From a virus (taxonomy: Duplodnaviria; Caudoviricetes), in IMG/VR virus record IMGVR_UViG_3300028591_000090, positions 64,001 through 128,000 of that record: 64,000 nucleotides of DNA. One strand, given 5' to 3'. Below, in pieces: positions 11,765 to 14,047 of this stretch (position 1 is the stretch's first letter; each line of letters starts with the position of its first letter). Made by a program: the position numbers and the translations under genes. Under the pieces are notes generated by a model. That model did not search any database and was not told the DNA's origin. It saw only the letters and a list, made by a program, of their open reading frames with translations.

Positions 11765-11840
11765 AACATAATTATTTACGTTTCTTATAATATTTTCGTT
11801 TCATAAATAAAAAGAAAACATAGTATGGAACAATATATCC

Positions 11841-12020
11841 GATGAAATAAAATTACTCAAACTTACTCAATGCTTGATTTGAATAATTCTCTGTGGATTG
11901 CAATCCACTCCATCGGAACGACAGAAGTTTATCCTTTAAATCACATCTTTTGATATTCAAAGGTTCAAAACTTCCGTCAATATTTTGTTTTAAGAGTGGT
12001 CGAAACACGGTTTCGCTTAC
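11841..12020 (-). ncRNA. candidate TnpB omegaRNA scaffold overlapping the tnpB 3' end
   Basis: Hairpins at 12001-12015 and 11893-11908 (perfect 16-bp palindrome). The 11853-11886 stem pairs fully on the minus strand only (one G-U). Position matches known TnpB omegaRNAs; boundaries are approximate. Confidence 0.45.
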
Positions 12021-13463
12021 TCTGTTTCTTATATTGACACTTGCATTATGGTCTGCATTATCACTATGACCACAACATGTACATACAAATTCTTCTTGTG
12101 TTTTTCTATTGTTCTTATCTATGTTTCCACAAACAGAACACATTTGACTGGTGTAGGAAGAGTGTACTATTGATAATTGCATGCCATAATTCTGTGCTAT
12201 ATGTTTAACTTCTTGCTTTAAAGATGAAATATTTAGTGCAGATACAAGTCTATTGTAATTTATCTTATCAAATTCTTCTGTTTTTGCAAACGATTTCTCA
12301 AATCCATTGTCAAGATTTTCCATAACAATATGGTCATAACCATTAGAAGATAATGTTTTACACATTTTGGCAATCAGATTCTTATTAGAATATTTTATCT
12401 TGTTCGCTATGACATCTATCTTGTGTTGTCTTCTTTTACCAACGGTATATTTTTCATCTTTAGACTTCAAATCATCAGTATACTTTCGTTCTGACAAATA
12501 ATCCTTGACTAATTTGTGATTGTAGTCAAAAATTTCTCCAGTAGAGCAAGAAAATAGATTATGTTTAGTATTTACGTCAATTCCTATAAATGATTTTTTG
12601 TTCTCTATCATTATTCTCTCGCAATCCTTGCACAGATTAATCTTAATTGTTTTGTGATATTCGTCAAAACAAATTATATATTCATAGTCATTCGTCTGTT
12701 TCCTCCAAGACATCATATTATCGTGGTAATCCTTTGCAAATTTAACAGGTATATCAAAGGACTTTCTATCAAATCCAGATAGACTAATGAAAGCATTTAT
12801 TACAGAGTTATAGTTCTTATTGTAGTCAACAATTCTTTTCTTTCTGCTTCTTCCACCGAATGTCAACTTCTTGAACTCGATTGGTTCTTTGTATCGTTTT
12901 AATATATAGTCTCTCTTCTGGCGTGTGAGATTCCATAGTCTTTCAAATCCAAATTTGTCAATGACTCTATTCATCATAGAGAAGAAATCCTCTTCCGTCT
13001 TTAAACGAATAAACTCAAGAACAGATGTATTGTTACATTTAATAAGATACGTTAATGTCTTTGACAAATCAGTCGAACTTCTTCTTATCTTTGTCTTCTT
13101 GAAATCACCTTTCTTGTTTTTCTTTGTAGTCCTTTTATAAAACTCAAGACCAAGGTACTCAACTTTCTCAAACTTTAGTTTTCTCCTTAATTGAACGAAC
13201 CGATTCTCATAGCAAGTATAAACGTGAGTATAGAGTTGGTTATCGAATGACGATGGAATTTTGTTTTTGTACTTATTCCTCATATATTTCATAAAGTCAA
13301 ACTTCGACATTTCGTGATAAAACATTATGTTTGAATTCACATCATTTGATACAATATTCTTGTGGTTACGTAATGTAATAGCAAAGTCATACAACTCATT
13401 GTACTTTTCCTTAGTCAATGAGTCTGACATAAATGATTTAGTATGTTTGCTTTGAATTATCAC
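11853..13463 (-). CDS. tnpB: TnpB-family RNA-guided nuclease, solo and long (536 aa)
   Basis: RuvC-I GIDVN, RuvC-II VMENL, YTSQMCSVCG...CTCCG zinc finger, RuvC-III NADHNASVNI; catalytic D/E/D intact. Confidence 0.88.
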   Translation of the reverse strand: MIIQSKHTKSFMSDSLTKEKYNELYDFAITLRNHKNIVSNDVNSNIMFYHEMSKFDFMKYMRNKYKNKIPSSFDNQLYTHVYTCYENRFVQLRRKLKFEKVEYLGLEFYKRTTKKNKKGDFKKTKIRRSSTDLSKTLTYLIKCNNTSVLEFIRLKTEEDFFSMMNRVIDKFGFERLWNLTRQKRDYILKRYKEPIEFKKLTFGGRSRKKRIVDYNKNYNSVINAFISLSGFDRKSFDIPVKFAKDYHDNMMSWRKQTNDYEYIICFDEYHKTIKINLCKDCERIMIENKKSFIGIDVNTKHNLFSCSTGEIFDYNHKLVKDYLSERKYTDDLKSKDEKYTVGKRRQHKIDVIANKIKYSNKNLIAKMCKTLSSNGYDHIVMENLDNGFEKSFAKTEEFDKINYNRLVSALNISSLKQEVKHIAQNYGMQLSIVHSSYTSQMCSVCGNIDKNNRKTQEEFVCTCCGHSDNADHNASVNIRNRVSETVFRPLLKQNIDGSFEPLNIKRCDLKDKLLSFRWSGLQSTENYSNQALSKFE

Positions 13464-13502
13464 TACAATCTTTCTTGTTTTTATCTACAATCCTTATTTT
13501 AT

Positions 13503-13558
13503 AAAGGCTGGAGAGGAGCGACCTCTCCGTGAGCGATTGTAGATTTCTCACCGCCTTT
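13503..13558 (-). ncRNA. structured leader RNA (three-way junction) upstream of tnpB
   Basis: GC-rich island. P1 aaaggc/gccttt, P2 ggagagg/cctctcc, P3 gtgag/ctcac. The P3 loop is complementary to 13483-13492 and 13463-13470. Confidence 0.6.
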
Positions 13559-13569
13559 TCTTTATTTAT

Positions 13570-13617
13570 TATACAAATTAGAAATAAAATAAACTAATTT
13601 TATTTCTAATTTGTATA
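13570..13617. repeat. perfect 21-bp inverted repeat with 6-nt spacer
   Basis: tatacaaattagaaataaaat-aaacta-attttatttctaatttgtata. Confidence 0.9.
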
Positions 13618-13675
13618 TATAAATAAAATAGAATCAATTTATTTTTGATAAATTTAAAAAAATTAGATAAGTTTT

Positions 13676-14047
13676 ATGTCAATAACTTATATCCCTTTAT
13701 TTGAATATTTTACTGTATCACGTAAAAAACTCATTAAAAGAATTTATGAAGAATTAAACGATAGAAAAATTACAAGCAAATTCTATGATGATGAATATTG
13801 GTTAGGTGTAGACGAAGCAATAAAAGCAATAAATTACGCTTGTGAAGAGTTCCATTGTACTTGTGTCGTTACTGTAAAAGACGGTGGATATAAAAAAAAT
13901 AGCGATAGTTCTGGAAAAAGAAAAGAATATAATTTTGAAATACTTGATGAAAATAAAATTGCTATTGCTATTGGTGTTATTATTTGTAGTGCCGCAGGAA
14001 CTCTCGAAGACCCGTTTAGCAGATACGATATAACGGTAAACATGTAA
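13676..14047 (+). CDS. hypothetical protein with N-terminal YIPLFE motif
   Basis: 123-aa ORF, TAAATA at 13625. Confidence 0.7.
   Translation: MSITYIPLFEYFTVSRKKLIKRIYEELNDRKITSKFYDDEYWLGVDEAIKAINYACEEFHCTCVVTVKDGGYKKNSDSSGKRKEYNFEILDENKIAIAIGVIICSAAGTLEDPFSRYDITVNM

Follow-up and report, generated by a model that had tools for sequence, protein, structure and literature searches.

How is a nuclease gene of the tnpB type controlled when it resides in a phage genome without a tnpA transposase gene beside it? TnpB, the ancestor of Cas12, behaves as an RNA-guided homing enzyme, and to our knowledge almost nothing is known about the control of its dosage. The question is raised by a tnpB gene in the stretch of 64,000 nucleotides (nt) analysed here, positions 64,001 to 128,000 of the IMG/VR record IMGVR_UViG_3300028591_000090 (hereafter the window). 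The complete record is a 183.6-kb phage sequence encoding a T4-type large terminase and a split family-B polymerase, and its closest catalogued relatives are huge uncultured phages. As judged from its homologs, the gene is the tnpB of an IS607-type element that extends from about 13693 to 11838 and lacks tnpA. The stretch upstream of it is, on comparative evidence, the 5' leader of this element and a real, selected feature, not a chance fold. We see about an even chance that the leader acts in cis, with the loop of its stem P3 pairing with the start-codon region and limiting TnpB translation.

The position of the start codon was settled by comparison with homologous loci, which are given L numbers. 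The public gene call P0001 (525 amino acids, aa) places the tnpB start at the ATG of 13430 (13428-13430). The codon aligned with the GTG at 13463-13461 is ATG in L008, an autonomous relative, and in L088, and the ATG at 13430 is not conserved; the alignment therefore identifies the GTG at 13463, not the ATG at 13430, as the true start. The encoded protein retains the RuvC triad D296, E382 and D471 and the zinc-finger cysteines C442/C445/C461/C464, which are invariant among 26 homologs.

Upstream of this GTG lies a leader of 103 nt, unusually long when measured against the distance from TAAATAA motifs to ATG codons in the window (14-32 nt for most copies linked to an open reading frame, ORF). 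The initial annotation had described a G+C-rich island of 56 nt with stems P1, P2 and P3, and this was found with only small differences in coordinates. The island has 54% G+C, compared with 24% in its flanks. The three-way junction alone is predicted to fold with -23.7 to -23.8 kcal/mol, and a 116-nt stretch folds at z = -3.4 relative to shuffles. The coordinates of these and other features are collected in the table.

The second structural claim of the initial annotation also held. The P3 loop is perfectly complementary to one site in the leader, at 13492-13483, and over eight of eight bases to another at 13470-13463, whose last G is the first base of the GTG start codon. When the 63 nt downstream were shuffled, a loop match of at least 10 nt was reached in 2 of 20,000 shuffles, while such a match together with a second of at least 8 nt was never reached in 20,000. 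The motif GATTGTAG occurs seven times in the 183.6-kb record, three of these copies being in the leader. Across the homologs, the energies of the loop duplexes range from -7.5 to -13.6 kcal/mol for site 1 and from -7.8 to -12.4 kcal/mol for site 2, and the two lie within about 3.5 kcal/mol of each other in every homolog. Nested folds that use site 1 or site 2 instead of P1 and P3 are the predicted minimum-free-energy structure in several homologs. Such near-equal energies are compatible with competing states; they do not show a switch.

Table. Coordinates of the leader, of the element that carries it and of an unrelated leader in other loci (window positions unless a locus is named).
Feature	Position	Strand	Remarks
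Left end of element	13632..13695	-	GGG at 13693-13695, then A-rich repeats phased roughly 10 bp (TTGACAnnAAAyTTATCTAA ... TATCAAAAATAAA)
Inverted repeat	13570..13617		Perfect, 20 bp, 8-nt spacer; right arm 13570-13589 (-), left arm 13598-13617
TAAATAA motif	13562..13568	-	Promoter-like; 3 nt upstream of P1
Three-way-junction RNA	13503..13558	-	Stems P1, P2 and P3; linkers 0-1 nt
P1	13558-13553 with 13508-13503	-	AAAGGC with GCCUUU
P3	13551-13547 with 13533-13529	-	GUGAG with CUCAC; 13-nt loop 13546-13534
P3-loop anti-start segment	13544-13535	-	AUCUACAAUC; complementary to both downstream sites
P2	13528-13522 with 13516-13510	-	GGAGAGG with CCUCUCC; 5-nt loop
Site 1	13492-13483	-	GAUUGUAGAU; 10/10 complementary to P3 loop, duplex -13.6 kcal/mol
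Site 2	13470-13463	-	GAUUGUAG; 8/8 complementary to P3 loop, duplex -10.1 kcal/mol
tnpB	11853..13463	-	536 aa, GTG start; PF07282 at E 1.7e-15
Conserved 3' region and right end	11838..12020	-	Presumed omega-RNA scaffold; ends ...TTTTATTTCATCGGA (11838)
Group B leader	L009:1375-1515; same stretch of L014, L015, L018, L019, L020, L021 and L039; L027:275-415		Directly upstream of tnpB

Is the leader maintained by selection? A TnpB clade at about 80% identity was found by protein searches, and its loci were then fetched. Nine further distinct copies of the leader were identified (L004, L005, L087, L088, L089, L090, L092, L097 and L100), giving ten phage loci with different neighbouring genes. The mean pairwise identity is 0.96 across 13526-13555 in the junction and 0.94 around the start codon, compared with about 0.80 for the coding sequence and 0.6-0.7 for the left end of the element. 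Pair by pair, the junctions are 93-100% identical and the coding sequences 74-87%. Along the aligned elements, conservation peaks at the leader and falls off in the element sequence to either side, a pattern that indicates purifying selection on the leader itself, not hitch-hiking. The initial annotation had named missing conservation in homologs as a result that would tell against it; what was found is the same leader in ten loci, as the best conserved part of the element. Site 2 is present only in elements that have the junction. The corresponding position is occupied by A-rich sequence and an ATG in L008 and L091, which have a tnpA region there, and in L098, which has another 5' end.

The range of the leader is narrow, comprising ten closely related metagenomic loci within the clade of about 80% TnpB identity, and the leader is confined to elements without tnpA. 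Two DNA-pattern scans of IMG/VR and a first single-protein scan of the same database returned no further copies, and one metagenome scan returned a single leader-bearing locus, L087. A covariance model of the leader, run on 66 TnpB loci and the window, detected only the window's own copy and no diverged ones.

Covariation was assessed on these ten sequences, a closely related and apparently recombining set. All 18 base pairs of P1-P3 are identical in all ten and, because the stems never vary, the junction is neither supported nor contradicted by covariation. One of the eight pairs in the helix between the loop and site 2 does covary. It is A-U in five sequences, G-C in four (L005, L090, L092 and L097) and A.C in L100, and corresponds to columns 41 and 113 of alignment A6, the loop side being an A/G polymorphism at 13537. 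A second pair of the same helix changes from U-A to U.G. The four sequences with G-C do not form one clade on the coding-sequence tree (approximately unbiased (AU) test, p = 0.006, at least two changes forced), and a polymorphism lying between columns 41 and 113 is found in all four allele combinations with each of them; the association of the two columns is therefore not simple linkage. Complementarity between loop and site is kept in nine of the ten loci despite the substitutions. Site 1 shows only wobble changes or end mismatches in the homologs and is degenerate in L088. One-sided changes are mostly compatible with G.U pairing on the sense strand of tnpB, a bias that is not significant once L100 is included. 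The loop/target covariation check proposed by the initial annotation turned up one loop:site 2 pair, with L100 as an exception; the stems are invariant and site 1 varies by wobble and mismatch only. We regard the covariation of the loop with site 2 as suggestive, not decisive.

The leader of L100 (L100:1388-1512) itself looks like a mosaic whose 5' part is L087-like and whose 3' part is L097-like, which is evidence for recombination among the elements.

The leader lies on the tnpB-transcript side of the element, and its transcription would start from the TAAATAA motif, which is a plausible promoter. We call it promoter-like because the motif is enriched ahead of ORFs in the window: of the 56 copies, 19 fall in the 120 nt preceding an ORF start (7% expected). 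Homologous leaders have the motif too, unchanged or with slight differences (TGAATAA, TGATAA). It had been annotated as a late-type element 4 nt upstream of the junction. The motif is present and its enrichment is promoter-like, but the distance is 3 nt and a late timing would be conjecture.

The favoured reading, a leader that occludes its own start codon, can be set out as follows. A transcript initiated at TAAATAA would begin almost at once with the three-way junction, which would display the 13-nt P3 loop. Pairing of this loop with GAUUGUAG at the GUG start would create a long-range helix or pseudoknot, predicted to hide the start from the ribosome and to keep nuclease synthesis low. Site 1, a near-identical copy upstream, would compete for the P3 loop as a putative decoy and might set the balance between a closed and an open state. 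A decoy-versus-start switch of this kind would be plausible. The overlap of the tnpA stop with the tnpB start in autonomous relatives points to coupled translation of the two genes, and the leader may stand in for that coupling after the loss of tnpA.

Several observations count against this reading. The invariance of the 18 stem pairs leaves the junction without covariation support, and the loop covaries with site 2 at a single pair, with one exception (the A.C of L100), in ten related, recombining sequences. A shuffle control with L100 included reached the observed value in 15 of 500 cases, a figure that, as the sequences are related, should not be read as a probability. In L088 both pairings are weakened (-7.5 and -7.8 kcal/mol) and the start is AUG, and the gene is still intact. 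A loop of 13 nt would also have to accommodate a pseudoknot of 8-10 bp, which bears on its steric feasibility. Finally, the near-invariance of the junction fits base-specific contact with a protein at least as well as it fits occlusion. With nearly every junction base fixed, a further constraint is suggested: a protein partner, which might be TnpB itself, or several folds that exclude one another.

The most serious rival follows from this last point, although we consider it unlikely. The junction would be a protein-binding operator, either for TnpB itself (autoregulation) or for a phage RNA-binding protein, and the complementarity would be secondary or part of the bound fold. The leader of T4 gene 32, in which a pseudoknot nucleates gp32 binding, provides a model. 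Stems, loops and junction bases are almost wholly invariant while the coding sequence has diverged by 13-26%, and simple occluding hairpins normally drift with compensatory changes. Moreover, TnpB is an RNA-binding protein reported to process its own mRNA (PMC10278001). Nevertheless, no resemblance of the leader to the conserved 3' omega-RNA region was seen, and an operator leaves unexplained why a second complementary copy lies exactly on the start codon and covaries with the loop. A comparison of the leader with the 3' omega-RNA region by RNAduplex, using long stretches, gave uninterpretable pairings all over.

Occlusion and protein binding could also be combined. The leader would then be a bistable pseudoknot switch for phage RNA-guided nucleases, its junction being read by TnpB, by the TnpB ribonucleoprotein or by an infection-stage factor that shifts the loop between decoy and start, giving autoregulated or timed nuclease production. 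In this full form the proposal is a rather unlikely extension of the occlusion reading.

Could the leader be without any present function? It would then be a relic of a tnpA deletion, kept similar by recent spread and by recombination of the left-end module, and the complementary copies would be leftovers of local duplication. The restriction of the leader to a single TnpB clade, the mosaic structure of leaders such as that of L100, and the alignment of the A-rich spacer between the two sites with the 3' end of tnpA in L008 are all in line with such a history. We hold it to be doubtful and of low probability: an identity peak flanked by less conserved element sequence is unexpected under hitch-hiking, the complementarity has survived substitutions in nine of ten loci, and the gene of the element is intact in nearly all loci.

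It is improbable, too, that the junction is a small stable RNA. It would then either be cut from the leader as an antisense RNA of the C4 kind and act on sites 1 and 2 after processing, or stabilise the mRNA at its 5' terminus by protecting it from 5'-end-dependent decay. Such a role would suit a structure at the extreme 5' end of a TAAATAA-started transcript, and in phages P1 and P7, too, the C4 RNA precedes on one transcript the sites with which it pairs. At E values up to 10, however, neither C4 nor another Rfam family was matched above chance level. ARAGORN found no tRNA-like gene or fold that would hint at a substrate of RNase P, and P1 is not followed by anything resembling a terminator. 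For GATTGTAG, the 183.6-kb record offers no further plausible target close to where a gene begins, and the two complementary sites would be superfluous for an RNA that only stabilises the message.

A role at the DNA level, with GATTGTAG as sites for the IS607 transposase or another protein, or with the junction and a T-rich run on the plus strand as a terminator against antisense transcription, is very improbable: left ends of the IS607 family do hold several TnpA-bound subterminal repeats (PMC6188088), and the plus strand has TTTTCTTTATTTATT after the junction, but known TnpA motifs are direct repeats with a phasing of about 10 bp at 20-60 bp from the end, and such repeats lie upstream at 13632-13685; the right end lacks GATTGTAG, and so does the left end of the autonomous relatives, which encode TnpA; a shared motif should change in all three copies, whereas the loop and site 2 vary in step and site 1 keeps its U; and a scan for intrinsic terminators was negative on both strands. 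As a TnpA-binding site GATTGTAG was rejected for its absence from the right end and from autonomous relatives and for the better phased-repeat candidates upstream.

Further candidates were set aside. An upstream ORF or leader peptide running through the leader was rejected on account of indels of 1-2 nt between junction and start among the homologs. A Cas12a-like CRISPR RNA handle (UCUAC...GUAGAU) was rejected on the grounds that GUAGAU is followed by the conserved leader and gene start, with no variable spacer, and that the conventional 3' guide-RNA region is kept. UCGCUCAC in the leader matches GUGAGCGA in the 3' coding region over 8 nt, but this match was dropped as not conserved.

How does a start-occluding leader compare with known RNAs and control systems? 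A search of the whole window with Rfam 15 at gathering thresholds, its families including C4, RAGATH-18 (RF03064), IS605-orfB motifs, small ribozymes and riboswitches, gave no matches. A permissive scan of 13380-13680 gave chance-level matches only (E 2-8, 9-21 bits against thresholds of 50-100), none of them to C4, RAGATH-18 or a ribozyme. The Infernal/Rfam check suggested at the outset has thus been run, and it assigns the leader to no family, C4 (RF01695) included. This absence from Rfam agrees with the initial proposal of an undescribed class of cis-regulatory RNA, but that proposal was overstated, as start occlusion by a 5' leader is well known in nuclease and transposase genes of mobile elements (PMC2988022). 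By analogy, the logic is that of known control systems, and what is new is a variant of it, not a new principle.

In the homing-endonuclease genes of T-even phages (I-TevI, I-TevII, I-TevIII, segB and mobE), the ribosome-binding site is sequestered by RNA structures that adjoin late promoters (PMC2988022). As there, the gene behind the leader in the window encodes a selfish DNA-cutting enzyme of a T4-like phage, a promoter-like motif lies immediately upstream, and the leader is predicted to form a structure hiding the start. The predicted structure likewise includes the translation-initiation region, site 2 being complementary to the P3 loop over all eight bases. In the T-even genes, the Shine-Dalgarno sequence is covered by a simple local hairpin that also contains the late promoter, and late transcripts are therefore made without the inhibitory arm. 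The TAAATAA of the window, by contrast, is upstream of the whole structure, so the inhibitory loop would be present in transcripts from it. Moreover, the loop of a three-way junction would act on the start codon at long range, and there is a second, competing site.

In IS10 and IS200, fold-back inhibition operates, with stem-loops of the 5' leader occluding the start region of the transposase gene. These cases share with the favoured reading a leader of the transposon itself that pairs with the initiation region of a transposon gene, and low expression. They differ in controlling a transposase by nested hairpins in other insertion sequence families, whereas the window has the TnpB of a tnpA-less IS607-type element. 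The C4 RNA of P1 and P7 (RF01695) is also a small structured RNA located upstream on the same transcript, with loop sequence complementary to start sites and further copies of the site upstream. C4 has two loops (a' and b') with two boxes (a2 and b2) and is cut out by RNase P; the window has one loop with two alternative targets. Only the P3 loop of the leader is complementary to the downstream sites, the P2 loop (UCGCU or UAGCU) having no partner. The leaders of type I toxins such as dinQ (PMC5066626) provide a further parallel, in that mutually exclusive pairings in the 5' leader decide the accessibility of the start for a harmful protein. In those leaders, 5' processing triggers the switch and antisense small RNAs act with it; the leader of the window is not known to have a processing site or an antisense RNA.

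The element carrying the leader has the hallmarks of the IS607 family. Its TnpB has an intact RuvC triad and zinc finger. Its ends, which were placed by comparing loci with different neighbouring genes (homology boundaries), show GG(G) at the left boundary in eight loci and ...TCGGA at the right boundary. No tnpA of the serine-recombinase type (MerR-type helix-turn-helix plus Resolvase) was found in the window, and such a gene is present in relatives; the copy in the window is therefore taken to be a non-autonomous derivative.

Homology among loci with different upstream genes starts at the left end (13632-13695). Direct repeats of the TCAAAnTTA type with a spacing of about 10 bp also lie upstream of the leader in L005, L087-L092, L097 and L100. 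These phased repeats are probably the TnpA-binding motifs of this IS607 subgroup, and they resemble the TnpA-binding motifs in the left end of IS1535, another member of the family (PMC6188088). The L004 copy is without the left-end part, and this element is probably immobile.

At the right end, homology among loci stops at ...TCGGA (11838), about 15 nt past the tnpB stop. Conservation extends over the last 200 nt or so of the element, where a hairpin at 11893-11908 shows compensatory changes, GUGGAUUGCAAUCCAC being replaced by GUAUGUGUACACAUAC in relatives. This region is probably the scaffold of the guide RNA (omega-RNA), with the hairpin as part of it. No match to RAGATH-18 was found in 11838-12020.

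Where did the leader come from? In L008 (74-86% nucleotide identity), a tnpA of the MerR-plus-Resolvase type occupies L008:1869-2504, its stop overlapping the tnpB start. The leader sits where tnpA and a small upstream ORF sit in this autonomous form. In L091, which falls in the same identity range, an ORF of 70 codons abuts the tnpB start (L091:1-213), and its DNA resembles the 3' ends of tnpA in L008, L023 and L028. On the coding-sequence tree, both L008 and L091 fall within the group of leader-bearing copies; there was either repeated loss of tnpA or repeated exchange of the leader module. Autonomous elements of the family such as IS1535 and IS607 (PMC6188088) have the same TnpB orthologue, GG ends, phased left-end repeats and guide-RNA-like conserved 3' end as the element in the window; they differ in having tnpA and the small upstream ORF (as in L008) in place of the leader. 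Another tnpA-less copy, L098:1240-1530, has neither the junction nor the left end. There, a relic of the 3' end of tnpA leads directly into an ATG start, and GATTGTAG is missing.

Structured leaders are also found at other TnpB genes. About half of the more distant tnpA-less TnpB homologs (about 50% identity), which reside in large phages, have an unrelated leader, named group B. The loop of its 5' hairpin kisses the apical loop of a long second hairpin, and a U-run follows 10-17 nt before the ATG. Covariation is strong in this leader: 17 of the 26 pairs have changed on both sides, and the observed values were reached in none of 500 shuffles. The kissing helix of 8 bp is 100% paired and contains six covarying pairs. 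No match of this leader to Rfam was found; a small RNA or an element that exerts control through a terminator are both conceivable. With the leader of the window and group B taken together, phage-borne TnpB genes without tnpA seem to acquire structured leaders recurrently. A third type of leader, found in L022, L035, L037, L038 and L043, is short and rich in A+T; it has a motif like TAAATAA and, about 35 nt ahead of the ATG, a hairpin that is likewise A+T-rich (AAUCAUUU...AAAUGAUU).

The scope of the finding is modest, as it concerns ten closely related metagenomic loci and a logic with precedents. A leader better conserved than the nuclease gene behind it nevertheless points to strong selection on expression control in phage-borne tnpA-less elements, and a second, independent structured leader in related elements suggests a general need. 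Should the bistable switch prove true, it would imply, together with group B, that phage-borne TnpB genes generally come under RNA control modules of their own after the loss of tnpA. The leader is also a compact RNA of about 100 nt with clear pairings, which could be used to study or engineer TnpB expression.

The promoter motifs of the window extend beyond this element. Both TAAATAA and TAnnTTTG are enriched 14-45 nt upstream of ORF starts, which points to two classes of promoter, both giving very short leaders, and would fit a host of the Bacteroidota type. Immediately upstream of the TAAATAA of the tnpB leader lies the inverted repeat listed in the table. Its right arm is the conserved promoter-region segment of the element, TTTTATTTCTAATTTGTATA. 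Its left arm is an extra, inverted copy of TTTTATTTCTAATTTGTATA, with a motif like TAAATAA after it. This copy is carried by an insertion of about 40 nt that is found only in the window (absent from all nine other loci) and coincides with a drop in identity at 13583-13641. The inverted copy faces a plus-strand gene at 13676, as if a duplicated promoter were driving a gene displaced by the insertion.

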